A model generated the notes under the pieces. The model was not told the DNA's origin. It searched no databases and was given only the letters and a program-made list of their open reading frames with translations. A stretch of 64,000 bases of DNA from Escherichia coli (GTDB lineage Bacteria > Pseudomonadota > Gammaproteobacteria > Enterobacterales > Enterobacteriaceae): assembly GCF_011045215.1 (NCBI RefSeq), contig NZ_CP049201.1; one strand, given 5' to 3'. Below, piece by piece: positions 27,718 to 41,864 of this stretch (position 1 is its first letter; each line of letters opens with the position of its first letter). The translations under genes were made by a program, and so were the position numbers.

Positions 27718-30700
27718 ATGTCACGTTATAAAACAGGTCATAAACAACCACGATTTCGTTATTCAGTTCTGGCCCGCTGCGTGGCGTGGGCAAATATCTC
27801 TGTTCAGGTTCTTTTTCCACTCGCTGTCACCTTTACCCCAGTAATGGCGGCACGTGCGCAGCATGCGGTTCAGCCACGGTTGAGCATGGGAAATACTACG
27901 GTAACTGCTGATAATAATGTGGAGAAAAATGTCGCGTCGTTTGCCGCAAATGCCGGGACATTTTTAAGCAGTCAGCCAGATAGCGATGCGACACGTAACT
28001 TTATTACCGGAATGGCCACAGCTAAAGCTAACCAGGAAATACAGGAGTGGCTCGGGAAATACGGTACTGCGCGCGTCAAACTGAATGTCGATAAAGATTT
28101 CTCGCTGAAGGATTCTTCGCTGGAAATGCTTTATCCGATTTATGATACGCCGACAAATATGTTGTTCACTCAGGGGGCAATACATCGTACAGACGATCGT
28201 ACTCAGTCAAATATTGGTTTTGGCTGGCGTCATTTTTCAGGAAATGACTGGATGGCGGGGGTGAACACCTTTATCGACCATGATTTATCCCGTAGTCATA
28301 CCCGCATTGGTGTTGGTGCGGAATACTGGCGCGATTATCTGAAACTGAGCGCCAATGGTTATATTCGGGCTTCTGGCTGGAAAAAATCGCCGGATATTGA
28401 GGATTATCAGGAACGCCCGGCGAATGGTTGGGATATCCGCGCAGAGGGCTATTTACCTGCCTGGCCGCAGCTTGGCGCAAGCCTGATGTATGAACAGTAT
28501 TATGGCGATGAAGTCGGGCTGTTTGGTAAAGATAAGCGCCAGAAAGACCCGCATGCTATTTCTGCCGAGGTGACCTATACGCCAGTGCCTCTTCTGACAC
28601 TGAGCGCCGGGCATAAGCAGGGCAAGAGCGGTGAGAATGACACTCGCTTTGGCCTGGAAGTTAACTACCGAATTGGCGAACCTTTGGCGAAACAACTCGA
28701 TACGGATAGCATTCGCGAGCGTCGGGTACTGGCAGGCAGCCGCTATGACCTGGTTGAGCGTAATAACAACATCGTTCTTGAGTACCGCAAATCTGAAGTG
28801 ATCCGTATTGCTCTGCCTGAGCGTATTGAAGGTAAGGGCGGTCAGACACTTTCCCTGAGGCTTGTGGTCAGCAAAGCAACTCACGGACTGAAAAATGTGC
28901 AGTGGGAAGCGCCGTCATTACTGGCTGAAGGTGGCAAAATTACCGGTCAGGGTAGTCAGTGGCAAGTAACGCTCCCTGCTTATCGTCCAGGCAAAGACAA
29001 TTATTATGCGATTTCTGCGGTTGCCTACGATAACAAAGGCAATGCCTCAAAACGCGTGCAGACAGAGGTGGTCATTACCGGAGCAGGTATGAGCGCCGAT
29101 CGCACGGCGTTAACGCTTGACGGTCAGAGCCGTATTCAAATGCTTGCTAACGGTAATGAGCAAAAACCGCTGGTGCTGTCTCTGCGCGACGCCGAGGGCC
29201 AGCCAGTCACGGGCATGAAAGATCAGATCAAGACTGAACTAGCCTTCAAACCGGCTGGAAATATTGTGACTCGTTCCCTGAAGGCCGCTAAATCACAGGC
29301 AAAGCCAACACTGGGTGAGTTCACCGAAACTGAAGCAGGGGTGTATCAGTCTGTCTTTACTACCGGAACGCAGTCAGGTGAGGCAACGATTACTGTTAGC
29401 GTTGATGGCATGAGCAAAACCGTCACTGCAGAACTGCGGGCCACGATGATGGATGTGGCAAACTCCACCCTGAGCGCTAACGAGCCGTCAGGTGACGTGG
29501 TTGCTGATGGTCAGCAAGCCTATACGTTGACGTTGACTGCGGTGGACTCCGAGGGTAATCCGGTGACGGGAGAAGCCAGCCGCTTGCGATTTGTTCCGCA
29601 AGACACTAATGGTGTAACCGTTGGTGCCATTTCGGAAATAAAACCAGGCGTTTACAGCGCCACGGTTTCTTCGACCCGTGCCGGAAACGTTGTTGTGCGT
29701 GCTTTCAGCGAGCAGTATCAGCTGGGCACATTACAACAAACGCTGAAGTTTGTTGCCGGGCCGCTTGATGCAGCACATTCGTCCATCACCCTGAATCCTG
29801 ATAAACCGGTGGTTGGGGGGACAGTTACGGCAATCTGGACGGTAAAAGATGCCTATGACAACCCTGTGACCAGCCTCACGCCGGAAGCGCCGTCATTAGC
29901 GGGTGCCGCTGCTGTAGGTTCTACGGCATCGGGCTGGACAAATAATGGTGATGGGACGTGGACTGCGCAGATTACTCTCGGCTCTACGGCGGGTGAATTA
30001 GAAGTTATGCCGAAGCTAAATGGACAGGATGCGGCAGCAAATGCGGCAAAAGTAACCGTGGTGGCTGATGCGTTATCTTCAAACCAGTCGAAAGTCTCTG
30101 TCGCAGAAGATCACGTAAAAGCCGGCGAAAGCACAACCGTGACGCTTATTGCAAAAGATGCACATGGCAACGCTATCAGTGGTCTTTCGTTGTCGGCAAG
30201 TTTGACGGGGACCGCCTCTGAAGGGGCGACCGTTTCCAGTTGGACCGAAAAAGGTGACGGTTCCTATGTTGCTACGTTGACTACAGGCGGAAAGACGGGC
30301 GAGCTTCGTGTCATGCCGCTCTTCAACGGCCAGCCAGCCGCCACCGAAGCCGCGCAGTTGACGGTCATCGCCGGAGAGATGTCATCAGCGAACTCTACGC
30401 TTGTTGCGGACAATAAGGCTCCGACCGTCAAAACGACGACGGAACTCACCTTCACCGTGAAGGATGCGTACGGGAACCCGGTCACCGGGCTGAAGCCAGA
30501 TGCACCAGTGTTTAGCGGTGCCGCCAGCACGGGGAGTGAGCGTCCTTCAGCAGGAAACTGGACAGAGAAAGGTAATGGGGTCTACGTGGCGACCTTAACG
30601 CTGGGATCTGCCGCGGGTCAGTTGTCTGTGATGCCGCGAGTGAACGGCCAAAATGCCGTTGCTCAGCCACTGGTGCTGAACGTTGCAGGTGACGCATCTA

Positions 30701-31971
30701 AGGCTGAGATTCGTGATATGACAGTGAAGGTTAATAACCAACTGGCTAATGGACAGTCTGCTAACCAGATAACCCTGACCGTTGTGGACAGCTATGGTAA
30801 CCCGTTGCAGGGGCAAGAAGTTACGCTGACTTTACCGCAGGGTGTGACCAGCAAGACGGGGAATACAGTAACAACCAATGCGGCAGGGAAAGTGGACATT
30901 GAGCTTATGTCAACGGTTGCGGGAGAACACAATATTTCCGCTTCGGTGAATGGTGCTCAGAAGACGGTCACGGTGAAATTCAACGCGGATGCCAGCACCG
31001 GTCAGGCAAACCTGCAGGTAGACACCGCCGTTCAAAAAGTGGCAAACGGCAAAGATGCCTTTACGCTGACGGCGACCGTTGAGGATAAAAATGGTAACCC
31101 TGTTCCAGGGAGCCTGGTGACCTTTAATCTGCCCCGGGGTGTCAAGCCGCTTATAGGCGATAATGTCTGGGTGAAAGCCAACGATGAGGGGAAAGCCGAG
31201 TTGCAGGTGGTTTCAGTGACTGCCGGAACGTATGAGATCACGGCATCGGCAGGGAATAGCCAGCCTTCGGATACGCAGACTATAACGTTTGTAGCCGATA
31301 AGGCTACCGCAACCGTCTCCGGTATTGAGGTGATGGGCAACTATGCGCTGGCGGACGGCAAAGCCAAACAAACGTATAAAGTTACGGTGACTGATGCCAA
31401 TAACAATTTGGTGAAAGATAGCGACGTGACGCTAACTGCCAGCCCGGCTTCGTTAAACCTGGAACCGAATGGCACTGCGACAACGAATGAGCAAGGGCAG
31501 GCTATTTTCACCGCCACCACTACTGTTGCGGCGACATATAAACTCACGGCGCAAGTGAGTCAGACCAACGGTCAGGTATCAACGAAAACTGCCGAATCTA
31601 AATTCGTCGCGGATGATAAAAACGCGGTGCTCACCGCATCATCTGATATGCAATCTCTGGTGGCGGATGGGAAATCGACTGCGAAGCTGGAGGTGACCCT
31701 GATGTCGGCAAATAACCCCGTTGGCGGGAATATGTGGGTCGACATTCAGACGCCGGAAGGGGTGACGGAGGAGGATTATCAGTTCCTGCCGTCGAAAAAT
31801 GACCATTTCGTGAGCGGAAAAATCACGCGTACATTTAGTACCAGCAAGCCTGGTGTCTATACATTCACATTTAACGCCCTGACCTATGGCGGGTACGAAA
31901 TGAAGCCAGTGACGGTGACCATTACCGCGGTGGATGCCAATACGGCAACGGGCGAGGAGGCGATGAAATAA
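27718..31971 (+). CDS. eaeH: intimin/invasin-like inverse-autotransporter adhesin with tandem bacterial Ig-like domains (intact)
   Basis: 1417 aa; N-terminus MSRYKTGHKQPRFRYSVLARCVAW… and more than eight internal repeats of the pattern T[LV]T[AV].D..GNPV.G (Big-type domains). Also known as fdeC. Confidence 0.85.
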   Translation: MSRYKTGHKQPRFRYSVLARCVAWANISVQVLFPLAVTFTPVMAARAQHAVQPRLSMGNTTVTADNNVEKNVASFAANAGTFLSSQPDSDATRNFITGMATAKANQEIQEWLGKYGTARVKLNVDKDFSLKDSSLEMLYPIYDTPTNMLFTQGAIHRTDDRTQSNIGFGWRHFSGNDWMAGVNTFIDHDLSRSHTRIGVGAEYWRDYLKLSANGYIRASGWKKSPDIEDYQERPANGWDIRAEGYLPAWPQLGASLMYEQYYGDEVGLFGKDKRQKDPHAISAEVTYTPVPLLTLSAGHKQGKSGENDTRFGLEVNYRIGEPLAKQLDTDSIRERRVLAGSRYDLVERNNNIVLEYRKSEVIRIALPERIEGKGGQTLSLRLVVSKATHGLKNVQWEAPSLLAEGGKITGQGSQWQVTLPAYRPGKDNYYAISAVAYDNKGNASKRVQTEVVITGAGMSADRTALTLDGQSRIQMLANGNEQKPLVLSLRDAEGQPVTGMKDQIKTELAFKPAGNIVTRSLKAAKSQAKPTLGEFTETEAGVYQSVFTTGTQSGEATITVSVDGMSKTVTAELRATMMDVANSTLSANEPSGDVVADGQQAYTLTLTAVDSEGNPVTGEASRLRFVPQDTNGVTVGAISEIKPGVYSATVSSTRAGNVVVRAFSEQYQLGTLQQTLKFVAGPLDAAHSSITLNPDKPVVGGTVTAIWTVKDAYDNPVTSLTPEAPSLAGAAAVGSTASGWTNNGDGTWTAQITLGSTAGELEVMPKLNGQDAAANAAKVTVVADALSSNQSKVSVAEDHVKAGESTTVTLIAKDAHGNAISGLSLSASLTGTASEGATVSSWTEKGDGSYVATLTTGGKTGELRVMPLFNGQPAATEAAQLTVIAGEMSSANSTLVADNKAPTVKTTTELTFTVKDAYGNPVTGLKPDAPVFSGAASTGSERPSAGNWTEKGNGVYVATLTLGSAAGQLSVMPRVNGQNAVAQPLVLNVAGDASKAEIRDMTVKVNNQLANGQSANQITLTVVDSYGNPLQGQEVTLTLPQGVTSKTGNTVTTNAAGKVDIELMSTVAGEHNISASVNGAQKTVTVKFNADASTGQANLQVDTAVQKVANGKDAFTLTATVEDKNGNPVPGSLVTFNLPRGVKPLIGDNVWVKANDEGKAELQVVSVTAGTYEITASAGNSQPSDTQTITFVADKATATVSGIEVMGNYALADGKAKQTYKVTVTDANNNLVKDSDVTLTASPASLNLEPNGTATTNEQGQAIFTATTTVAATYKLTAQVSQTNGQVSTKTAESKFVADDKNAVLTASSDMQSLVADGKSTAKLEVTLMSANNPVGGNMWVDIQTPEGVTEEDYQFLPSKNDHFVSGKITRTFSTSKPGVYTFTFNALTYGGYEMKPVTVTITAVDANTATGEEAMK

Positions 31972-32091
31972 TATTAAGAGTATGAAAGTAACATTCTAAT
32001 AAACAATAATGGCGTTGACATCTTCAACGCCATTATTTATTGAATTTCCTGACAGTAGTCTCGTTATAAATTCATTTAGACATAGCGACAG

Positions 32092-32982
32092 CTAAACCGG
32101 ACGAACGGGGATAAAAATTTCGCAAACAATGTTATTGCTATCAATTTCGACGAAATTTTCATTGTAATAAAACCGCTCAATATCACTGCCGTTGACTCTG
32201 GCTAACCCCCTGGCGGGTAATTCCATCAGATAGAGGTTTCGCGCCCATTCAGGGTAGTGCTCCCACTCACCTTCATAGCGGAAAGAGGCATACAGTCCTC
32301 GGTTAATTGTCCACTCTTTCGGCATCTCTGAATCGGTTTGTTTGCATACCGTACCGGCAAAAGTTTCAACCGTGAGCAAATCGACCGATTTTGTTGACGG
32401 TTCAAACGTGGAGACGAAATAGATATCCGTCTTAAAATTATTCATACATCTGGCTAAATGATGACGTCGCAGTTTGACTTCTTCATCCGGTGATTTATTC
32501 GACACTTCAATATCATATTTAAATGAATTGCCAAAAATAGGTGTCTCAGGAAAGTTGACTAATCTACACTCCGTCTTTTGCTGTTGACGTATTAAAAAAG
32601 AAGGGAAGATATTTGCGAGATCCCAATAATCACGGTGGCGGTATACACGGGGAGAGCAGCCGAATAACTTTTTAAATTCGCGGCTGAATGACTGCTGTGA
32701 ATCAAAATGCAAAGAGAGTGCAATATCAAGCATAGATTTCGCGGTGAGCCGGACAAGAATGGCGGCACGACAAAGCCTTCGTTTGCGAATGTATTCTCCC
32801 AAAGGCACATGCATGAAATTTCGGAACAGAAGCTGGATGTTGCGTCTGCTGTAGCCAGATTTCTGTGCGATATCTTCGATTGAAATAGGGTGCTCAAGAT
32901 TGCACTCAATCCACTCCAGGAGCTGCTGTAGAATCTTCTGCCTGATCATCACATTCTCCATTAATTCTTCGTCATATCGCAC
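32092..32982 (-). CDS. ykgA: AraC-family regulator with C-terminal GyrI-like effector domain (ykgA-like)
   Basis: AraC HTH at the N-terminus (…IEDIAQKSGYSRRNIQLLFRNF…FGCSPRVYR) followed by about 150 aa of GyrI-like domain; start codon uncertain. Confidence 0.7.
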   Translation of the reverse strand: MRYDEELMENVMIRQKILQQLLEWIECNLEHPISIEDIAQKSGYSRRNIQLLFRNFMHVPLGEYIRKRRLCRAAILVRLTAKSMLDIALSLHFDSQQSFSREFKKLFGCSPRVYRHRDYWDLANIFPSFLIRQQQKTECRLVNFPETPIFGNSFKYDIEVSNKSPDEEVKLRRHHLARCMNNFKTDIYFVSTFEPSTKSVDLLTVETFAGTVCKQTDSEMPKEWTINRGLYASFRYEGEWEHYPEWARNLYLMELPARGLARVNGSDIERFYYNENFVEIDSNNIVCEIFIPVRPV

Positions 32983-33196
32983 ATTTTCGTTATGCCCTGG
33001 GCCCTAAGTGTATCAAAAACAGCAAGGCCCAAGGCAAAAGCACTGATAGCGTCTGCTTCATTGCCCCAAAAATAGAGAGGTTTCAGTCCTACATTATTAA
33101 TGAATTTTTTGCATAAGTGATATCAAAATCCACATACTAATTTGAGGTTACGTTTTAACGTAGACTCATTGTTCATGCTTAATGGAGGGACTGACA

Positions 33197-34066
33197 GTGG
33201 AATTTTCCGTATTAAGTAACAATCTGAAAATGCCGATGATGGGATTTGGTGTTTTTCAGGTTACCGATAAAAACGTGTGCAAACAGTCAGTGTTGAACGC
33301 TATCCGCACGGGTTATCGACTCATCGACACTGCAGCGGTATACGGTAATGAAGATGCTGTCGGTGAAGCCGTTCGTGAAGCCATATCCGAAGGTTTATGT
33401 ACCCGAGAAGAGTTATTTATAACGTCTAAATTGTGGGTGCAGGATATGTTGAATCAGGATACGGCAGCAGCAGGTATTGAAGCATCATTAAAAAAATCGG
33501 GACTAGAATACTTCGACCTCTATTTATTGCATCAGGCTATGCGCGATTATTTCAGTGCGTGGCGTGCACTCGAAGATGCCTATGAAGAGGGCAAATTAAA
33601 AGCGATTGGGGTTTCCAATTTCTATCCTCATGTTCTGGCGAACTTTTGTGAAACGGTAAGAGTTAAACCGATGGTCAACCAGGTCGAGTTGCATCCCTAT
33701 TTTGCCCAACCAGAGGCACTGGCAACCATGAAGTATTATAACGTGCAGCCTGAAGCATGGGCTCCGTTAGGTGGTGGACGACATAAACCCTTTGAAAATA
33801 ATCTGCTTCAGAGTATTGCAGATGCCCATCAAAAATCGATTTCTCAAGTCATTCTGCGTTGGAATATTCAACGGGGAGTGGTCGTTATTCCGAAATCGAC
33901 ACATCAACAGCGTATCGAAGAAAATTTTGCTATCTGGGATTTCTCACTGACAGAGAAAGAAATGGCACAAATTAGTTCGCTTGATTTGGGTTATGTTGGA
34001 GAGTCGGTAAAACATTTTAATCCTGAATTTGTTCGTGGTTGTCTTGCTGTAAAAATACATGATTGA
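33197..34066 (+). CDS. aldo-keto reductase (DkgA-like)
   Basis: AKR motifs (MPMMGFGVFQV…IDTAAVYGNE…); GGAGGGA lies 6 nt before the GTG at 33197, so that was preferred over the ORF-track ATG at 33182. Confidence 0.75.
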   Translation: MEFSVLSNNLKMPMMGFGVFQVTDKNVCKQSVLNAIRTGYRLIDTAAVYGNEDAVGEAVREAISEGLCTREELFITSKLWVQDMLNQDTAAAGIEASLKKSGLEYFDLYLLHQAMRDYFSAWRALEDAYEEGKLKAIGVSNFYPHVLANFCETVRVKPMVNQVELHPYFAQPEALATMKYYNVQPEAWAPLGGGRHKPFENNLLQSIADAHQKSISQVILRWNIQRGVVVIPKSTHQQRIEENFAIWDFSLTEKEMAQISSLDLGYVGESVKHFNPEFVRGCLAVKIHD

Positions 34067-34225
34067 TATTAATCATGTATTTTACCTGAGACGACAAGAA
34101 TCTTTTAACAGGGGAGTGATATTGATCTTCACTCTGTCATATCTCAGGTAATATGGCGTCAGGCTTCATCATCAGAAAGGGGGCCTGACGCCTGAAAAAG
34201 TGAACAACAGACAGTGTTCGGATTA

Positions 34226-34819
34226 TCAATATTCAGTTTTTAACGTTGAACTGGATTCATTACTGCGTTGTTTAAGAATTTCCCGCGCCGAATCTGCCAT
34301 TATCATGACAGCACCTGCCAGCATCAGAGTATCTTTCAATACCAGACGACCAGCACCGGATAAATAAGGGAAACCATGATGAGCGTCACCCAATGCGGGT
34401 ACCCATGCCTCCGGGGTGGTGATTAAAAATGAGAGTGTTACCAACGGTGTGGTAAATGCCATCAGCCCTCCCAATAAACCTAACCAGCGATTGACAGGAT
34501 TAGCCAAAACCAGCAGAGCAATAATCACCTCCACGACGCCAAGACCGTTGGAAAAACCATAGGTATTATTGGCCGATTGCCATGCCCTTGCTTCTGGTTT
34601 GTATTCGCCTTCGTGAGTCAGATACTGTTTATAGTCTTCCGGGTGTTCATAAAAGAACGACATTAGTGGACTGTTTGCGACGAATGGTGTAATGCTGTCT
34701 GCCTCGTAAGGGACAAACTTTAATAACCCAATCCACATAAAAACAATCGCAATACTCAGACGAATCAATGTCAGGCCAATTTTATCTCCCCGACTTAACA
34801 GGTGCAGGTATTTTTCCAT
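34226..34819 (-). CDS. rclC: reactive chlorine resistance inner membrane protein (DUF417)
   Basis: 197 aa from MEKYLHLLSRGDKIGLTLIRL…; multi-pass membrane protein downstream of rclB. Confidence 0.8.
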   Translation of the reverse strand: MEKYLHLLSRGDKIGLTLIRLSIAIVFMWIGLLKFVPYEADSITPFVANSPLMSFFYEHPEDYKQYLTHEGEYKPEARAWQSANNTYGFSNGLGVVEVIIALLVLANPVNRWLGLLGGLMAFTTPLVTLSFLITTPEAWVPALGDAHHGFPYLSGAGRLVLKDTLMLAGAVMIMADSAREILKQRSNESSSTLKTEY

Positions 34820-34830
34820 TGTGAACATCC

Positions 34831-35067
34831 TTATTTATACAATACTGCTGTTGCGGTTGAATTATTATCAATTCGCATCGATGTGACTTTCCAGGATGAA
34901 GCATTATATTTTCTGGCTATATCAGCAATGGCATCCTCCAGAACTGTCGGTGATGCTGATACTGACGAGACGCTGATATGTTTCAGAATTATTTTATCAT
35001 CTGCATTGGTGGAAAATGCCATAACGCCAGATAATAGTGTTGCAAATAAAACGGATTTTTTAAACAT
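34831..35067 (-). CDS. rclB: small periplasmic DUF1471 protein
   Basis: 78 aa from MFKKSVLFATLLSGVMAFSTNA…; signal peptide plus DUF1471-like C-terminus. Confidence 0.75.
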   Translation of the reverse strand: MFKKSVLFATLLSGVMAFSTNADDKIILKHISVSSVSASPTVLEDAIADIARKYNASSWKVTSMRIDNNSTATAVLYK

Positions 35068-35175
35068 ATAAAATACCATCAATGAAGTGATTAAGAAGTT
35101 ATAGAGTAACAGGGAATTAATAAGATTCTTTTCTCTGAGACGCCAGAATATTTGTTCTGGCGTCTGATTTTGAGT

Positions 35176-36501
35176 TTATTTGACTAATGAAAATAGATCA
35201 TTGAGTGATTCGCTCATCGACGGATGAGTAAATATCTGATCGCGTAATATGCTATAAGGCAGCCCGGCATCCATCACCATTTTCACTATATTAATCATCT
35301 CGTGGGAGTCAACACACAGCAGTGATGCCCCTAATATACGTTGGGTTTTATTATCAACAATCGCTTTTAATACCCCACGGGTATCGTTCATCACTCTGGC
35401 GCGCGGAATTGCAGCTACAGGCAATGTCACCACCTGAATATCAGCACCACTCTCTCTGGCTTGTTCTTCTGTCATACCAACCCTGGATAGGGGCGGTGTC
35501 ATAAATACGGAATAAGGCACATTTTTCCGATCATCAGTACTACGTTTGCCTTCACCCAGTAACTCATCACGTACAATGCGGTAATCATCCAGTGATATGT
35601 AAGTAAATTGCAGCCCGCCGGTAACATCTCCCATCGCCCAAATATTGTCTGCGGTGGTATGTAATCGCTTGTCAACGACAATTGCCCCGCGCTCGTTTAC
35701 TGCGATACCGGCATTTTCTGGATGTAACGAAGCGGTAGCCGGTTGACGACCGGAAGCTATTAACAGTGCATCCACCGCCAGTTGGGCGTGCTCGCTATGC
35801 ACTTGCACTTGATTTTCATGGTGACTGATTCGCTCCACATGGGCATTGAGGATAATATCGACGCCCTGATCGCGTAAAATCGTCGCGATATTATCAGCAA
35901 TATCCCGTTCTTCCCGAGGCAAAAACAGTGAAGCTGCTTCTAAAATGGTTACCTTGCTGCCAAAATTAGCGAACATAGAGGCGAACTCAACGCCAATATA
36001 TCCGCCGCCCAAAATACCTAAATGCCCAGGCAATTCTTTTAGATTAAGTAATCCGGTGCTGTCATATACTCCTGGCGTGGTGGTAATTCCAGTAATTGGC
36101 GGAACCACGGTTTGTGCACCGGTATTAATAAAAATTTTCTCGCCATGAATTTCCAGATTTCCCTCAGGCCGATGAACACGCAGGCTATGATTATTGATAA
36201 ACTCCGCCTGGCCGTCGATCACGTCGATATTGGGCATATCCGCAAGATTATGAAAATTCTTATTACGTAAAAAATTAACCACTTCATTTTTACGCTGTAT
36301 GGCACGGACAAAATCTGTGTGCTGCTGTGCGTCATGAACCAATGTTTTGGTTGGGATGCAGCCGATATTAATACAGGTCCCGCCATACATTGCATTTGAT
36401 TGTTCGATGAGAGCCACTCGCCAACCTGCTTTTGCCAGCGTGACGGCTAATGTTTTTCCAGCCTTGCCAAAACCAATAATCACTGCCTGATATTTATTCA
36501 T
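35176..36501 (-). CDS. rclA: pyridine nucleotide-disulfide flavin oxidoreductase (reactive chlorine resistance)
   Basis: Start at MNKYQAVIIGFGKAGK… (FAD-binding GxGxxG); CxxxxC redox motif (GGTCINIGCIPTK); divergent from rclR. Confidence 0.85.
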   Translation of the reverse strand: MNKYQAVIIGFGKAGKTLAVTLAKAGWRVALIEQSNAMYGGTCINIGCIPTKTLVHDAQQHTDFVRAIQRKNEVVNFLRNKNFHNLADMPNIDVIDGQAEFINNHSLRVHRPEGNLEIHGEKIFINTGAQTVVPPITGITTTPGVYDSTGLLNLKELPGHLGILGGGYIGVEFASMFANFGSKVTILEAASLFLPREERDIADNIATILRDQGVDIILNAHVERISHHENQVQVHSEHAQLAVDALLIASGRQPATASLHPENAGIAVNERGAIVVDKRLHTTADNIWAMGDVTGGLQFTYISLDDYRIVRDELLGEGKRSTDDRKNVPYSVFMTPPLSRVGMTEEQARESGADIQVVTLPVAAIPRARVMNDTRGVLKAIVDNKTQRILGASLLCVDSHEMINIVKMVMDAGLPYSILRDQIFTHPSMSESLNDLFSLVK

Positions 36502-36726
36502 GATGATTTCCTGTCGAAACGCGTTCATTTGACATCATGACTATAGACGCAAAAGAGCAAATAACATTTCTTCACAACGCTTGATATTTTGTCTTATCGT
36601 CTGGTATTTTCTTTTTCTTAATCAGAATCACAAAACAAAAATCATGATTAACTATTTGATGGTATTAGATTAGTTATTTACTAAGATTGTTGGTGTTTGT
36701 AATCAAAAACCACTCAGGAGTCTGAT

Positions 36727-37581
36727 ATGGATGCCCTTAGCCGTTTGTTGATGCTTAACGCTCCACAAGGAACGATCGATAAGAATTGCGTGTTAGGAAG
36801 TGACTGGCAGCTTCCACATGGTGCCGGGGAATTATCGGTTATTCGTTGGCATGCGTTAACGCAAGGAGCGGCGAAGCTGGAAATGCCGACGGGGGAGATT
36901 TTTACATTACGCCCGGGAAATGTGGTCCTGCTACCACAAAATTCAGCCCATCGCCTGAGTCATGTCGATAATGAATCAACCTGTATTGTCTGCGGCACTC
37001 TTCGGCTGCAACATTCGGCGCGTTATTTTTTAACGTCTTTGCCGGAAACGCTGTTTTTAGCACCGGTTAACCACAGCGTAGAATATAACTGGCTGAGGGA
37101 GGCGATCCCGTTTTTACAACAGGAATCCAGATTGGCAATGCCGGGAGTGGATGCACTGTGTAGCCAGATCTGCGCTACATTCTTTACCCTCGCGGTGCGT
37201 GAGTGGATTGCACAGGTTAATACTGAGAAAAACATTCTCAGTTTGCTTCTGCATCCACGTCTTGGTGCGGTAATACAGCAAATGTTGGAAATGCCAGGAC
37301 ACGCCTGGACCGTCGAATCGCTGGCCAGCATCGCCCACATGTCCCGGGCAAGTTTTGCCCAGCTTTTCCGTGATGTTTCCGGAACCACGCCGCTGGCTGT
37401 ATTAACAAAGTTGCGTCTACAAATAGCGGCCCAGATGTTTTCCCGGGAAACGCTCCCTGTTGTGGTGATCGCTGAGTCAGTAGGCTATGCCAGTGAATCA
37501 TCTTTTCACAAGGCGTTTGTCCGCGAGTTTGGTTGTACTCCGGGAGAATATCGGGAAAGGGTCAGACAGCTTGCACCCTGA
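36727..37581 (+). CDS. rclR: AraC-family reactive-chlorine-responsive activator
   Basis: 284 aa with C-terminal AraC HTH; divergent from rclABC. Confidence 0.85.
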   Translation: MDALSRLLMLNAPQGTIDKNCVLGSDWQLPHGAGELSVIRWHALTQGAAKLEMPTGEIFTLRPGNVVLLPQNSAHRLSHVDNESTCIVCGTLRLQHSARYFLTSLPETLFLAPVNHSVEYNWLREAIPFLQQESRLAMPGVDALCSQICATFFTLAVREWIAQVNTEKNILSLLLHPRLGAVIQQMLEMPGHAWTVESLASIAHMSRASFAQLFRDVSGTTPLAVLTKLRLQIAAQMFSRETLPVVVIAESVGYASESSFHKAFVREFGCTPGEYRERVRQLAP

Positions 37582-38107
37582 ATAAAACCGCCAGAAATCA
37601 GGGCAAAGATAATCCGCATTCCGGGAGTTGTGAGCCTTTCAACTATTTCTATTTCCAACGGTGGTTTGGGCTTTATATATTTTTTTCTGATGGACTCTAG
37701 CTCAGTTTTTAAATAAAAATGCAAACTAAATTGTTTCAATTAAATAAAATCCCGACTATTACTTGATACGTGATTATTGTCGGTGATTTTTTTGTACACC
37801 ATCAGTGTATATCTCAACAACCCCTGAATAAGTAGCTCTGAATAGGTATAAGGGATGTAGCCATTTTTAAATGGATTTCTTATGCCAAAAATGATCGTCG
37901 ATTTCCCCATAAAATGTGAGCGATGCCGAAAGAAATAAAATTAGTTATTGCATTTGACGTTTGGATGAAAGATTATCATTTGTCATACAAATGAGGGGTG
38001 GTATGTTGCTAGCCAATTAAAAAAGAACGCCATATTTATTGATGATTGATCCCCCGGTGGGGGGAAACATCGGGCATAAATGGGCATGAAGTAATGGAGT
38101 ATTAGTT

Positions 38108-38827
38108 GTGAATGTCAATTTCTTTGTCACCTGTATTGGTGACGCCCTGAAATCAAGAATGGCACGAGACTCCGTGCTGCTACTGGAAAAACTCGGCTGT
38201 CGCGTAAATTTCCCGGAGAAACAGGGATGCTGCGGTCAGCCTGCGATCAATAGTGGTTATATCAAAGAAGCGATTCCAGGGATGAAAAATCTGATCGCCG
38301 CACTGGAGGATAACGACGATCCCATTATTTCACCGGCTGGCTCTTGCACCTATGCCGTAAAAAGTTACCCGACGTATCTGGCGGATGAACCTGAATGGGC
38401 ATCACGAGCCGAAAAGGTTGCCGCGCGTATGCAGGATCTCACCTCTTTTATTGTTAATAAATTAGGGGTAGTCGATGTAGGTGCCAGTTTGCAAGGGAGA
38501 GCGGTGTATCACCCATCTTGTAGCCTGGCCCGTAAGCTGGGGGTGAAGGACGAACCACTTACGCTGCTGAAAAATGTGCGTGGACTGGAGCTGTTGACCT
38601 TTGCTGAACAGGATACCTGCTGCGGATTTGGCGGCACGTTCTCGGTCAAAATGGCCGAAATATCCGGCGAGATGGTGAAAGAAAAGGTTGCGCACCTGAT
38701 GGAAGTCCGCCCTGAGTATTTAATAGGTGCTGACGTGAGTTGCCTGCTGAACATCAGTGGGCGATTACAACGGGAAGGGCAGAAAGTCAAAGTGATGCAT
38801 ATTGCTGAAGTGTTGATGAGCCGCTGA
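38108..38827 (+). CDS. ykgE: LutA-like cysteine-rich (CCG domain) Fe-S oxidoreductase subunit
   Basis: 239 aa, GTG start, repeated CCG motifs (GCCGQP…, TCCGFGG). Confidence 0.85.
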   Translation: MNVNFFVTCIGDALKSRMARDSVLLLEKLGCRVNFPEKQGCCGQPAINSGYIKEAIPGMKNLIAALEDNDDPIISPAGSCTYAVKSYPTYLADEPEWASRAEKVAARMQDLTSFIVNKLGVVDVGASLQGRAVYHPSCSLARKLGVKDEPLTLLKNVRGLELLTFAEQDTCCGFGGTFSVKMAEISGEMVKEKVAHLMEVRPEYLIGADVSCLLNISGRLQREGQKVKVMHIAEVLMSR

Positions 38828-38837
38828 GGGTATAAAG

Positions 38838-40265
38838 ATGTCGATCAAAACCAGTAATACAGATTTTAAGACACGCATCCGTCAGCAAATTGAAGATCCG
38901 ATCATGCGCAAAGCGGTGGCAAACGCGCAGCAGCGTATTGGGGCAAATCGGCAAAAAATGGTCGATGAATTGGGGCACTGGGAGGAGTGGCGCGATCGGG
39001 CCGCCCAGATACGTGATCATGTTCTGAGTAATCTCGACGCTTATCTGTACCAGCTCTCAGAAAAAGTGACGCAAAACGGCGGTCACGTCTATTTTGCAAA
39101 AACCAAAGAAGACGCTACCCGCTACATTTTACAGGTTGCCCAACGCAAAAATGCCCGGAAGGTGGTGAAATCTAAATCGATGGTGACCGAAGAGATTGGT
39201 ATCAATCATGTGTTGCAGGATGCTGGCATTCAGGTGATTGAAACCGATCTGGGTGAATATATTCTCCAGCTGGATCAAGATCCGCCATCTCATGTTGTGG
39301 TCCCGGCAATTCATAAAGATCGCCATCAGATCCGTCGAGTGCTACACGAACGTCTGGGCTATGAGGGGCCGGAAACGCCTGAAGCGATGACCTTATTCAT
39401 CCGGCAAAAAATCCGCGAAGATTTCCTCAGTGCTGAAATAGGTATTACCGGCTGTAATTTCGCGGTGGCAGAGACAGGTTCGGTATGCCTGGTGACCAAT
39501 GAAGGTAATGCGCGAATGTGTACCACGCTGCCTAAAACGCATATTGCAGTGATGGGAATGGAGCGTATTGCCCCCACGTTTGCCGAGGTAGATGTATTGA
39601 TCACCATGCTGGCGCGCAGTGCCGTTGGTGCACGTTTGACGGGATACAACACCTGGCTGACAGGACCGCGCGAAGCGGGGCACGTTGATGGTCCTGAAGA
39701 GTTTCATCTGGTTATTGTCGATAACGGGCGTTCTGAGGTGCTGGCCTCTGAATTTCGGGATGTGCTGCGCTGTATTCGCTGCGGGGCTTGTATGAATACT
39801 TGTCCGGCATATCGCCATATTGGCGGTCATGGATATGGCTCTATTTATCCAGGGCCAATTGGTGCGGTGATTTCTCCGCTACTTGGCGGCTATAAAGATT
39901 TTAAAGATTTACCCTACGCCTGCTCTTTATGCACAGCTTGTGACAACGTGTGTCCAGTGCGTATTCCGCTGTCAAAACTGATTTTGCGTCATCGTCGGGT
40001 GATGGCTGAAAAAGGGATCACCGCAAAAGCAGAGCAACGGGCGATAAAAATGTTCGCTTATGCCAATAGTCATCCAGGATTGTGGAAAGTCGGGATGATG
40101 GCCGGCGCTCATGCGGCAAGCTGGTTTATCAATGGCGGCAAAACACCACTCAAATTTGGCGCGATTAGCGACTGGATGGAAGCACGCGATCTTCCTGAAG
40201 CTGACGGAGAGAGTTTCCGTAGTTGGTTTAAGAAACATCAGGCGCAGGAGAAAAAGAATGGATAA
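38838..40265 (+). CDS. ykgF: LutB-like 4Fe-4S ferredoxin-type oxidoreductase subunit
   Basis: 475 aa with two CxxCxxCxxxCP clusters (CIRCGACMNTCP, CSLCTACDNVCP). Confidence 0.85.
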   Translation: MSIKTSNTDFKTRIRQQIEDPIMRKAVANAQQRIGANRQKMVDELGHWEEWRDRAAQIRDHVLSNLDAYLYQLSEKVTQNGGHVYFAKTKEDATRYILQVAQRKNARKVVKSKSMVTEEIGINHVLQDAGIQVIETDLGEYILQLDQDPPSHVVVPAIHKDRHQIRRVLHERLGYEGPETPEAMTLFIRQKIREDFLSAEIGITGCNFAVAETGSVCLVTNEGNARMCTTLPKTHIAVMGMERIAPTFAEVDVLITMLARSAVGARLTGYNTWLTGPREAGHVDGPEEFHLVIVDNGRSEVLASEFRDVLRCIRCGACMNTCPAYRHIGGHGYGSIYPGPIGAVISPLLGGYKDFKDLPYACSLCTACDNVCPVRIPLSKLILRHRRVMAEKGITAKAEQRAIKMFAYANSHPGLWKVGMMAGAHAASWFINGGKTPLKFGAISDWMEARDLPEADGESFRSWFKKHQAQEKKNG

Positions 40266-40953
40266 TCGAGGCGAATTTTTGAATAACGTTGCTCAGGCAC
40301 TGGGTCGCCCGCTGCGACTTGAACCGCAAGCAGAAGATGCGCCGCTTAACAACTATGCTAACGAGCGGCTTACCGAACTTAACCAACAGCAGCGCTGTGA
40401 CGCGTTTATTCAGTTTGCCAGCGATGTTATGTTGACGCGCTGTGAACTGACCAGCGAGGCGAAGGCGGCAGAAGCTGCAATACGACTGTGTAAAGAGCTG
40501 GGAGATCAGTCGGTCGTGATTAGCGGTGACACGAGGCTGGAGGAATTAGGGATTAGCGAACGTTTGCAGCAGGAATGCAATGCCGTTGTTTGGGATCCGG
40601 CGAAAGGTGCCGAGAATATCTCGCAGGCAGAGCAGGCTAAAGTGGGTGTCGTGTATGCTGAATATGGTTTAACCGAATCGGGAGGCGTGGTTCTTTTTTC
40701 CGCCGCCGAGCGTGGGCGTTCATTGAGCCTGCTCCCGGAATCATCTCTTTTTATCCTGCGTAAAAGCACTATTCTGCCGCGTGTAGCGCAACTCGCAGAA
40801 AGATTGCATCAGAAAGCGCAGGCCGGTGAACGCATGCCGTCATGTATTAACATCATCAGTGGTCCCAGCTCAACGGCGGACATTGAGCTTATCAAAGTCG
40901 TCGGGGTTCATGGTCCGGTGAAAGCGGTGTATCTGATTATTGAGGATTGCTGA
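40258..40953 (+). CDS. ykgG: LutC-like subunit (DUF162)
   Basis: Start at ATG 40258 (MDNRGEFLNN…), overlapping the ykgF stop by 8 nt; the ORF-track start at 40111 lies inside ykgF. Confidence 0.8.
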   Translation: MDNRGEFLNNVAQALGRPLRLEPQAEDAPLNNYANERLTELNQQQRCDAFIQFASDVMLTRCELTSEAKAAEAAIRLCKELGDQSVVISGDTRLEELGISERLQQECNAVVWDPAKGAENISQAEQAKVGVVYAEYGLTESGGVVLFSAAERGRSLSLLPESSLFILRKSTILPRVAQLAERLHQKAQAGERMPSCINIISGPSSTADIELIKVVGVHGPVKAVYLIIEDC

Positions 40954-41059
40954 GAGAGGTATGAAGTCTGGACATAAACCTGAAGAAGGCATACGAGGTT
41001 GAAAATAGCGTTAAGGACAACCTGACTTAACCCCGTTCCGTCATGGTTATGCTCCTCTT

Positions 41060-41100
41060 CTGTAAATATCCTGGCATTAGTAATGCCAGGATATTTACAG
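41060..41100. other. 41-bp near-perfect palindrome between convergent ykgG and ykgH
   Basis: CTGTAAATATCCTGGCATTA-G-TAATGCCAGGATATTTACAG: 20-bp perfectly complementary arms around one central base; no canonical U-tract on either strand. Confidence 0.5.
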
Positions 41101-41195
41101 TGAAAAAGACAGGCATCCATTCCTGAAAACGGGTTCCCTTCCCGGTCATTGTCACTTCAGCTTTATACAGGCACTCTCTATCAGAATGCTGTTTA

Positions 41196-41864
41196 TTACT
41201 GCCCAGAGTTTTGTTGGTATTCATCTACCATTTTTTTGACAAGGCAAAACATTACAGAAATTACAATGCTTATAAAAAATCCCAGAGCTAGGTAAATGGC
41301 AGCAGGGTATTTATTTTTTATTTCTGGTGAGCTTATAGTTACACAGCCATCACCGTTTGGATACAATGACCAGTTCCTGGTCAGGTATATCATTTTTGTA
41401 TAAAGCTCACTGTTAATTGCTGAAGGCGTTTGTATCTCATCGAGAACTTGCCTGCCATTATGGTATTCTGACGCATACCATTTGATAATAGACGCCTGCA
41501 CGTGAGATATTTCCGCTTCAGCAGTTGGTAAATCTCTCTTATCTCCTGACCATTCCAGCTTTATTTCTCTGTTCTTGACATCTGGGCTGGTGTGAAAAAA
41601 TGTAGTAATTCGCTGAATAACATCTTCAGTCATTGTGGTCTGACAGGCAAAGTTATTATTGCTATCACAGTTAACAAGTATACCTGGCGTTGTCTGGTTT
41701 ATTTTTAGGCTGTAAATCACTTTTATATTGTCTTTATTGATATACAGAAACAACAGCACCATAGCCATACATATAGCCATAATAAAAAGGATAACACGAA
41801 TCTTTTTCTTCAGATAAAATAAAATCTCAATCAGATCGATATCCTGTTTGATTTGTTCACTCAT
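41196..41864 (-). CDS. ykgH: inner membrane protein YkgH
   Basis: 222 aa, one N-proximal transmembrane segment followed by a periplasmic domain; position between ykgG and betA. Confidence 0.75.
   Translation of the reverse strand: MSEQIKQDIDLIEILFYLKKKIRVILFIMAICMAMVLLFLYINKDNIKVIYSLKINQTTPGILVNCDSNNNFACQTTMTEDVIQRITTFFHTSPDVKNREIKLEWSGDKRDLPTAEAEISHVQASIIKWYASEYHNGRQVLDEIQTPSAINSELYTKMIYLTRNWSLYPNGDGCVTISSPEIKNKYPAAIYLALGFFISIVISVMFCLVKKMVDEYQQNSGQ

Follow-up and report, generated by a model that had tools for sequence, protein, structure and literature searches.

The ykgEFG genes found in this Escherichia coli window (the whole stretch of 64,000 nucleotides that was analysed) most probably form an independent L-lactate dehydrogenase operon of the LutABC/LldEFG type, which is repressed by YieP and lies beside the rcl genes as the result of an insertion/deletion. 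We give this reading a probability of about 85%. The operon is an ordinary, annotated and already known E. coli system, and its rcl neighbourhood carries no functional signal.

The operon comprises three genes:

38108 to 38827, + strand: ykgE, LutA/LldE-type subunit of 239 aa, GTG start, two CCG domains, HdrB-like.
38838 to 40265, + strand: ykgF, LutB/LldF-type subunit of 475 aa, with a LUD domain, two CxxCxxCxxxCP motifs and a LutB_C domain.
40258 to 40953, + strand: ykgG, LutC/LldG-type subunit of 231 aa, with a LUD domain (former DUF162).

Open reading frames and Pfam searches agreed with the earlier note on the position of these genes and on their CCG, 4Fe-4S and DUF162 domains. The three genes had also been described as overlapping, which is true of ykgF and ykgG, whose stop and start share 8 nt (ATGGATAA), but not of ykgE and ykgF, found 10 nt apart upon inspection of the sequence. 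For ykgG, a longer ORF of 280 aa starting at 40111 was set aside, and the 231-aa start was preferred because, in other species, the homologous gene starts where ykgF ends or slightly beyond. Pseudogenes in this strain had been named as a possibility; all three frames proved to be intact, with no internal stop and with 1 (ykgE), 2 (ykgF) and 3 (ykgG) amino-acid differences relative to K-12. At least 80% of the length of the locus was found in 5129 of 5426 complete E. coli genomes, and it is part of the E. coli core.

The domain content of each subunit was then considered. YkgE contains two Pfam CCG domains (117.5 bits). All of 72 representatives share its cysteines 9, 41, 42, 80, 138, 171, 172 and 212, and the same eight are at least 96% conserved among 112 representatives of 31-46% identity; they fall into two C-X31/32-CC-X37/39-C motifs. 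YkgF scored 778.9 bits with the TIGR00273 LutB/LldF equivalog model, for a cut-off of 444.8. Its Pfam domains are LUD_dom, Fer4_8 (4Fe-4S dicluster) and LutB_C (PF11870, 39.4 bits, cut-off 26.8), and the two CxxCxxCxxxCP motifs are CIRCGACMNTCP at residue 312 and CSLCTACDNVCP at residue 362. YkgG matched LUD_dom (PF02589, 106.6 bits) as well as the structure PDB 2g40 (E=1.4e-9), and its search against the NCBIfam models gave no match. Hydrophobic segments at transmembrane level were found in none of the three proteins. Judging from their sequences, the ykgEFG products retain all of the predicted cluster-ligating cysteines.

The likeness to LutABC proposed in the earlier note was borne out by the profile searches, by the literature and by the gene order, E, F and G being contiguous in 78 of 80 ykgF loci of other species (the two exceptions, L026 and L065, are cut short a little way past ykgF). 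Domains, gene order, the curated LutB/LldF model and published work together support the assignment of ykgEFG to the LutABC/LldEFG type. Bacillus subtilis LutABC (YvfV-YvfW-YvbY) and Shewanella oneidensis LldEFG show the same order, namely a CCG protein, a LUD protein with two [4Fe-4S] clusters and a second LUD protein, and subunit sizes that resemble those of YkgEFG; this likeness is one of gene order, sizes and curated model. YkgE homologs that bear a name in their source are called LldE or lactate utilization protein A. A Lactate_perm gene stands beside ykgE in 47 of the 80 loci, in other genera, and on plasmid pFec10 the ykgEFG copy is accompanied by lctP and dld (PMC7984374). Unlike the LutABC/LldEFG systems, E. 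coli ykgEFG has neither an adjacent permease nor a regulator of the LutR/LldR type, its repressor being YieP, and a search of the 64-kb window for an LldP homolog came back empty.

A further relative is LdhH, the fused large subunit of L-lactate dehydrogenase (model NF045670, 706 positions). YkgF covers positions 2-464 of this model (E=1e-127) and YkgE positions 468-705 (E=2e-54), whereas E. coli makes them as two polypeptides, with the ykgE gene preceding ykgF. Each of them stays below the cut-off of 800 bits because each spans half of the model. The existence of the fusion argues that YkgE and YkgF act as one unit.

More distant relatives are found among other iron-sulfur enzymes. The HdrB subunit of HdrABC carries two CX31-39CCX35-36CXXC motifs, with 10 ligating cysteines. 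The YkgE family profile matched full-length HdrB structures (E=5.5e-19), the ferredoxin part of YkgF matched HdrC structures, and in the heterodisulfide reductase comparison (HdrB/HdrC, PDB 5odc, 8rvv, 9sfi) the CC pairs and flanking cysteines are in register with those of YkgE. In the alignment to 5odc_B, however, the first cysteine of each HdrB CxxC pair is missing from YkgE, with a conserved serine, S79, nearby. YkgE has therefore 8 of the 10 cluster-ligating cysteines of the full two-motif HdrB pattern, which makes its cluster type uncertain, and the alignments support a relation to HdrB at the level of the overall fold. YkgEFG also differs from Hdr by its substrate, a hydroxy acid and not a heterodisulfide, and by the absence of the flavoprotein partner HdrA. 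The CCG architecture of YkgE is shared by the Fe-S subunits GlcF of glycolate oxidase (E=1e-28) and GlpC of anaerobic glycerol-3-phosphate dehydrogenase (E=1.5e-22), with scores far under the cut-offs of those families; GlcF and GlpC have flavoprotein dehydrogenases as partners (GlcDE and GlpAB), whereas the ykgEFG partners are LUD-domain proteins. To our knowledge, neither a structure nor the identity of the catalytic cofactor has been established for any enzyme of the LutABC/LldEFG type.

Upstream of ykgE, three regulatory elements were delineated:

37909 to 37939, no strand assigned: candidate activator-binding block AAAATGTGAGCGATGCCGAAAGAAATAAA, whose TGTGA half-site resembles those of CRP/FNR and lies about 61 bp before the predicted start.
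37948 to 37976, + strand: putative sigma-70 promoter of ykgEFG, TTGCAT (37948-37953), 17 nt, GATTAT (37971-37976).
37976 to 37994, no strand assigned: YieP operator, TCATTTGT-CAT-ACAAATGA, a perfect inverted repeat of 19 nt with 8-nt arms and a 3-nt spacer.

The hexamers of this promoter and their spacing are invariant across the Escherichia/Citrobacter alignment (A1), and Reg-Seq located a YieP site downstream of the RNA polymerase site at the ykgE promoter (PMC7567609). A generic promoter scan had pointed to another pair, TTGTCA/TATGTT (37980-38007), which was rejected as the main promoter because the Reg-Seq repressor lies downstream of the polymerase site and because TTGCAT-17-GATTAT is the invariant pair. 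The latter is the probable ykgEFG promoter, and the start site is predicted likewise.

The operator of the YieP regulon is present at the ykgE promoter. The reverse complement of ATTTGTCATACAAAT, a sequence with a single match in the whole 64-kb window, is the published YieP ChIP-exo motif atTTGTaTGAcaAAT (PMC7642389), and the match at 37978-37992 is perfect. Upstream of ykgE, 13 Escherichia/Citrobacter loci and two Proteus loci retain the operator core TTGTCATACAA, and the regulatory sequence of the window is identical to that of K-12. ChIP-exo detected YieP binding in K-12, where deletion of yieP raised ykgEFG about 6-10-fold (PMC7642389), and Reg-Seq, combining mass spectrometry with a knockout, assigned YieP to the ykgE promoter (PMC7567609).

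As for the upstream block, AAAATGTGAGCGATGCCGAAAGAAATAAA hardly varies between E. coli and Citrobacter youngae, and the reported glucose repression of the ykgE promoter (PMC8827060) is consistent with an activator site. A second Reg-Seq site at this promoter was assigned to FNR (PMC7567609). The sequence did not confirm this assignment, since no match to the FNR consensus TTGATNNNNATCAA with up to 2 mismatches was found between rclR and ykgE. A regulator of the CRP/FNR type may nevertheless act at 37909-37939. An Rfam scan of 37500-41300 yielded only a sub-threshold chance match to a miRNA, and the hairpin of the ykgE leader, CCCCCGGUGGGGGG, folded no better than shuffled sequences (z -0.69).

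We then examined the relation of the operon to its upstream neighbour:

34061 to 37910, no strand assigned: rclC-rclB-rclA / rclR block, a neighbour outside the operon, missing from three other Escherichia lineages.

The rclR gene (36727-37581; 555 bits with the NCBIfam RclR equivalog, cut-off 400) is indeed upstream of ykgEFG and on the same strand, as the earlier note had it, but not immediately so: a 526-bp spacer with a separate promoter region lies between them. Although the rclR-ykgE junction is conserved in 5107 of the 5426 E. coli genomes, comparison with the 80 loci of other species found the adjacency within E. coli only, with rcl homologs lacking within 10 kb of the operon in every one of them. 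In the lineages represented by L003, L004 and L005, homology to the window extends through the aldo/keto reductase gene up to 34060 and restarts at 37911, in the ykgE regulatory region; at the position of the rcl block, these have about 308 unrelated bp. A search for rcl remnants in the 308-bp spacer of E. whittamii returned only chance matches of 9-15 nt, and the rcl block showed no direct or inverted repeats at its edges of the kind expected for a mobile element. The GC content is 43.7% for the block, and 50.7% for ykgEFG. Inside the block, 3′ of rclR, a hairpin followed by a U-run (37746-37794, dG -12.5, z -2.8) could plausibly terminate rclR transcription. Whether the indel is a gain or a loss is left unpolarised, the genome scan having returned neither E. 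albertii nor E. fergusonii nor the type genome of E. coli. We conclude that ykgEFG lies beside rclR because of a lineage-specific indel of 3.85 kb and not because of a shared function: this mapped indel, together with a conserved promoter under YieP control and with the permease genes linked to ykgEFG in other genera, shows that the adjacency should not be taken for an operon or regulon relation.

The earlier note had pointed to the juxtaposition with rcl as an open question. In its strongest form, a functional link would mean that ykgEFG is tied to the reactive-chlorine response, read-through from rclR or control by RclR tuning lactate oxidation in the inflamed gut, a proposal that we regard as very improbable. 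In its favour, the genes share one strand and a junction kept in most E. coli genomes, inflammation raises both host lactate and host oxidants (PMC9701030, PMC7527725), and ykgF and ykgG rose by log2 1.27 and 1.67 in wild-type cells treated with HOSCN (supplement of PMC12096828). This 2.4- to 3.2-fold rise fits weak read-through or crosstalk, and may also be an indirect effect. In the same RNA-seq data, HOSCN raised rclABC 12- to 200-fold while ykgEFG hardly changed (PMC12096828). Log2 values were 5.0, 3.5 and 4.4 for rclA, rclB and rclC, against 0.5, 1.3 and 1.7 for ykgE, ykgF and ykgG. Moreover, in an rclA deletion strain, rclB and rclC were up by log2 6.8-7.6, with values of -0.93 for ykgE, -0.31 for ykgF and +0.21 for ykgG (PMC12096828). 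A reporter containing rclR and the ykgE promoter responded about 2-fold, to glycolate only, and was essentially unresponsive to lactate (PMC8827060), and RclR is described as the activator of rclABC (PMC7527725).

The genomic data speak against the proposal as well: rcl genes are absent within 10 kb of all 80 other-species loci, the rcl block is cleanly missing in three Escherichia lineages that still have the ykgE promoter region, and rclR is followed by its hairpin and U-run. Neither of the two signs looked for in a member of the RclR regulon, co-occurrence in the 80 loci and strong co-induction under HOSCN, was found for ykgEFG, and a literature search on ykgF and hypochlorite brought up nothing relevant. 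A functional link is not supported in view of the indel, the operon's own promoter with a YieP operator, the unresponsive reporter and the lack of co-variation in the HOSCN RNA-seq. There is a slim chance that the rcl block, being upstream of the ykgE regulatory region, gives rise to weak oxidant-dependent read-through or crosstalk. If that were true, L-lactate respiration would be tuned to neutrophil-derived oxidants during gut inflammation, a setting in which host lactate rises along with reactive chlorine species.

Concerning the substrate, which the earlier note had left as an open question, a partial answer comes from genetics: deletion of ykgEFG leads to an L-lactate-specific defect in nitrate respiration, with no effect for D-lactate (PMC9701030). 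In an enzyme of the LutABC/LldEFG type, the NAD-independent oxidation of L-lactate to pyruvate would require all three subunits; for ykgEFG, the evidence on this is genetic and comes from the literature (PMC9701030). L-lactate specificity, like YieP repression and glucose repression, is taken here from the literature. According to Chai 2009, as cited in PMC7984374, K-12 has no aerobic L-lactate phenotype, and mouse colitis models revealed no phenotype for a ykgEFG mutant (PMC9701030). The confinement of the phenotype to anaerobic nitrate respiration is explained by LldD, which covers aerobic growth.

As a YieP-repressed L-lactate dehydrogenase operon, ykgEFG could work as follows. Its product would be a soluble or peripheral iron-sulfur enzyme of three subunits, with no recognisable flavin domain. 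L-lactate would be converted into pyruvate on the LUD-domain subunits (the N-terminal part of YkgF, and YkgG), and electrons would travel from the pair of [4Fe-4S] clusters in the ferredoxin domain of YkgF to the two CCG-motif clusters of YkgE, then to the quinone pool, and finally to anaerobic acceptors such as nitrate. At the DNA level, the operator for YieP, a repressor of the GntR/FadR family, would overlap the sigma-70 promoter at the start site, with the activator-type block upstream, and expression would be expected upon relief from YieP, for instance anaerobically, and in the absence of glucose. The sRNA FnrS represses yieP (PMC11340327); as FnrS is FNR-dependent and acts on yieP translation, it would provide the anaerobic relief.

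Could another small hydroxy acid (glycolate, 3-hydroxypropionate or another 2-hydroxy acid) be the main substrate in E. coli, L-lactate being a side activity? We consider this unlikely. The YieP regulon, to which ykgEFG belongs, also includes yohJK, genes with a link to 3-hydroxypropionate tolerance, but the same study credits this tolerance to yohJK and not to ykgEFG (PMC7642389). A slight response of the ykgE promoter reporter to glycolate (PMC8827060), the lack of an adjacent lactate permease in E. coli, the missing aerobic lactate phenotype of K-12 and gut phenotype, and the kinship of YkgE with GlcF and GlpC also go in this direction. They are outweighed by the deletion defect, specific for L-lactate and negative for D-lactate under nitrate respiration (PMC9701030), by the score of YkgF above the LutB/LldF equivalog cut-off, and by the Lactate_perm linkage of close homologs in 47 of the 80 loci. 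Least probable of all, and hardly credible, is that ykgEFG is a cryptic or decaying remnant, redundant with LldD. Phenotypes are weak or absent under most tested conditions, and expression in glucose medium is low (10-40 CPM, data of PMC12096828), but a remnant would not be expected to keep intact frames with 1-3 substitutions relative to K-12, a place in 5129 of 5426 genomes, all of its predicted cluster-ligating cysteines and a conserved regulatory region, nor to give a measurable anaerobic phenotype (PMC9701030).

Finally, one element was noted 3′ of the operon:

41060 to 41100, no strand assigned: perfect palindrome of 41 nt between the convergent genes ykgG and ykgH, with 20-nt arms that are 100% complementary.

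It is present in one copy per genome, and no U-run follows it. Folded as RNA, the palindrome is predicted to form a hairpin of -29 to -33 kcal/mol (z = -9.3 and -8.2), and it is possibly a bidirectional 3′-end hairpin.

The window is chromosomal E. coli DNA. The segment 37582-40953, whose genes carry the RefSeq names ykgE, ykgF and ykgG, matches 5234 of the 5426 complete E. coli genomes, with at least 80% of its length covered in 5129 and a best identity of 99.5%. Gene order around ykgEFG is the same as in K-12.

Genes around ykgEFG, in local order
Aldo/keto reductase gene, first, before rclC
rclC-rclB-rclA, minus strand
rclR, plus strand, between rclA and ykgE
38108-38827, plus strand, ykgE, GTG start, 239 aa
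38838-40265, plus strand, ykgF, 475 aa
40258-40953, plus strand, ykgG, 231 aa
ykgH, minus strand, after ykgG and convergent with it
betA, minus strand, after ykgH

The coordinates that the earlier note had assigned to the three ykg genes coincide exactly with these open reading frames, and they do lie next to rclR on the same strand. They had also been described as overlapping: this holds for ykgF and ykgG, which share 8 nt (ATGGATAA), but not for ykgE and ykgF, which are separated by a 10-nt gap with a GAGGG motif. The frames of ykgE, ykgF and ykgG are all open, with 1, 2 and 3 residue differences from K-12 respectively, so that they are not pseudogenes in this strain.

The assignment to the LutABC type was found to be sound. 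Pfam places two CCG domains in YkgE, a LUD domain (the new name of DUF162, PMC3924224), a 4Fe-4S dicluster domain and LutB_C in YkgF, and a LUD domain in YkgG. With 778.9 bits, YkgF passes the cut-off (444.8) of the NCBI curated equivalog TIGR00273, entitled 'LutB/LldF family L-lactate oxidation iron-sulfur protein'. YkgF and YkgE align consecutively to LdhH, a fused L-lactate dehydrogenase large subunit of 706 positions (YkgF on 2-464, E=1e-127; YkgE on 468-705, E=2.3e-54), which argues that the two work as a single unit. A sequence search of the PDB returned no LutABC-type structure. The solved structure closest to YkgE is HdrB, matched at E=2e-4 by YkgE alone and, along its full length, at E=5.5e-19 by a profile of 72 sequences; the ferredoxin part of YkgF comes closest to HdrC, and YkgG to the LUD protein 2g40.

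Searching 1.84 billion cluster representatives with YkgE gave 289 at E<=1e-30. In an alignment of 112 full-length representatives (31-46% identity), eight cysteines (C9, C41, C42, C80, C138, C171, C172 and C212) are at least 96% conserved, and the same eight are invariant in the 72-sequence set; the ninth, C31, is not conserved. They form two C-X31/32-CC-X37/39-C motifs, in register with the cluster ligands of HdrB (5odc_B), although, of each CxxC pair in HdrB, YkgE lacks the first Cys. Two CxxCxxCxxxCP motifs of the classical type lie in YkgF, at residue 312 and at residue 362. ykgEFG is an intact LutABC/LldEFG-type gene set that keeps all predicted cluster ligands, and YkgE and YkgF form a predicted HdrB/HdrC-like electron-transfer module. 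No flavin or membrane domain was found in YkgEFG, nor any hydrophobic stretch of transmembrane strength in the three proteins. Lactate would be oxidised on the LUD-domain subunits, and electrons would pass via the [4Fe-4S] pair of YkgF and the CCG clusters of YkgE to the quinone pool. Translation of the subunits may be coupled through the 8-nt overlap and the 10-nt gap.

The neighbourhood was compared in 80 loci of YkgF relatives (71-99% identity), each species being represented by a single genome and each locus taken with 10 kb of flank per side, or less near a contig end; neither the E. coli species representative nor E. albertii, E. fergusonii or E. marmotae is among them. In 78 of these loci the three ykg genes adjoin one another and point the same way; L026 and L065 end shortly past ykgF. 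A homolog of RclA, RclB, RclC or RclR adjoins the operon in none of the 80, the sole RclR matches being AraC-domain fragments of 28-31% identity. In 47 loci a gene of the lactate permease family directly adjoins ykgE (three examples checked: PF02652, E<=1e-122). Three non-coli Escherichia lineages, the most telling cases, lack the rcl block at this position: E. whittamii, Escherichia sp. E1V33 and a strain labelled E. coli (only 89% DNA identity). There, homology to the window extends across fdeC, the AraC-type gene and the aldo/keto reductase gene as far as 34060 and picks up again at 37911, about 308 unrelated bases replacing 34061-37910; the entire rclCBA-rclR block is therefore an indel of 3.85 kb. 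Since its right edge is the exact start of the conserved ykgE regulatory region, its GC content is low (43.7% versus 50.7% for ykgEFG, and also below its flanks) and the distribution of RclR, RclB and RclC is patchy (PMC7527725), we would tentatively favour an insertion in the E. coli lineage. No terminal repeats of the block were seen. Within E. coli the rcl-ykgE junction is standard (5107 of 5426 genomes).

The region upstream of ykgE was aligned between the window, K-12, three other Escherichia lineages and Citrobacter youngae.

Features upstream of ykgE (invariant: in this alignment)
37746-37794, hairpin followed by UGAUUUUUUU, inside the indel, about 165 nt downstream of the rclR stop
37909-37939, block AAAATGTGAGCGATGCCGAAAGAAATAAA, upstream of the -35 hexamer, nearly invariant from E. 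coli to Citrobacter
37948-37953, TTGCAT, invariant
Spacer of 17 nt between TTGCAT and GATTAT, invariant
37971-37976, GATTAT, invariant
37976-37994, perfect inverted repeat TCATTTGT-CAT-ACAAATGA
Operator core ATTTGTCATACAAAT, invariant, single occurrence in the window

We read TTGCAT and GATTAT as the likely ykgE promoter. The reverse complement of the operator core is the published ChIP-exo motif atTTGTaTGAcaAAT of the repressor YieP, and in E. coli W as well as in K-12 a yieP deletion raises ykgEFG some 6-10-fold (PMC7642389). At the ykgE promoter, Reg-Seq placed the site of a repressor downstream of that of RNAP, identified this repressor as YieP by mass spectrometry and knockout, and assigned a second site to FNR (PMC7567609). 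ykgEFG has an independent promoter, controlled by YieP. The core TTGTCATACAA precedes ykgE in 13 loci from Escherichia and Citrobacter and in two from Proteus, but is missing in most other genera, where a permease gene occupies that position. The 37909-37939 block is a candidate activator site: its CRP/FNR-like half-site TGTGA, with no full consensus, has its centre some 61 bp ahead of the predicted transcription start. No FNR consensus with up to two mismatches was found upstream of ykgE. The hairpin at 37746-37794 (-12.5 kcal/mol, z -2.8) could plausibly serve rclR as an intrinsic terminator; its long loop hid it from the consensus terminator scan. In the presumed ykgE leader, the CCCCCGGTGGGGGG hairpin at 38051-38064 differs from K-12 by 1 nt in G-run length; taken in full, the leader is no more stably folded than shuffled sequence (z -0.69), and it has no Rfam match.

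The earlier note had called the juxtaposition with the rcl locus an open question, and a functional tie between ykgEFG and rcl would be one explanation of it. Such a tie is doubtful, as it is contradicted by the comparative data and by expression data. In HOSCN-treated MG1655, log2 changes were 5.0, 3.5, 4.4 and 0.74 for rclA, rclB, rclC and rclR, versus 0.50, 1.27 and 1.67 for ykgE, ykgF and ykgG (PMC12096828 supplement); ykgEFG expression therefore does not track the RclR-driven operon under HOSCN. In an rclA deletion strain the values were 6.8 for rclB and 7.6 for rclC, against -0.93, -0.31 and +0.21 for ykgE, ykgF and ykgG (same supplement). A reporter that carried rclR together with the b0306 (ykgE) promoter responded only about 2-fold, to glycolate only, and was repressed by glucose and derepressed with lactate as carbon source (PMC8827060).

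The substrate had also been called an open question. A probable substrate has been published: in E. coli MP1, a clean ykgEFG deletion competes normally in anaerobic culture, loses fitness with nitrate and L-lactate but not with D-lactate, and was not impaired in either of two mouse models of colitis (PMC9701030). The specificity for L-lactate and the respiratory link to nitrate are taken here from that literature. For K-12, Chai 2009, as cited in PMC7984374, reported no aerobic lactate phenotype because LldD is present. That another hydroxy acid is the true substrate seems improbable next to the L-lactate-specific loss, and a decaying remnant is hardly what the open frames suggest. ykgEFG is a core operon with good annotation; its regulator and its probable substrate have both been described in print. 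Translation of yieP is repressed by FnrS, an FNR-dependent sRNA (PMC11340327), and it is plausible that less YieP then leads to anaerobic derepression of ykgEFG; this route, if true, would fit the phenotype under nitrate respiration as well as the FNR-dependence that Reg-Seq found. LutABC-type structure and cofactors, the YieP ligand and the in vivo role matter for the enzyme family and are not specific to the window.

Outside the window, a ykgEFG copy of 80-90% DNA identity lies on 157 plasmids (e.g. MK036889.1, NZ_CP148376.1), mostly conjugative and 121 of them from Klebsiella; on the E. coli plasmid pFec10 the copy reportedly sits with lctP and dld (PMC7984374). The lactate module is therefore mobile among enterobacteria. 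Intact versions of fdeC (1417 aa), of ykgA (the AraC-type gene) and of the aldo/keto reductase gene occupy 27718-34066, whereas their K-12 counterparts are IS3-disrupted pseudogenes (eaeH, ykgA, ykgQ). The window lacks the PAI-X genes hyxR, hyxA, hyxB and ipbA, which strain XH990 carries downstream of ykgH; at that position it has betA, as in K-12. Finally, a 41-nt perfect palindrome with 20-nt arms (41060-41100) lies between the convergent ykgG and ykgH. It is a single-copy element, which megablast detected in 2083 of the 5426 E. coli genomes. As RNA it folds, on either strand, into a hairpin with no U-run (-29 to -33 kcal/mol, z about -9), and its role may be that of a 3'-end hairpin or of a site bound by a protein.
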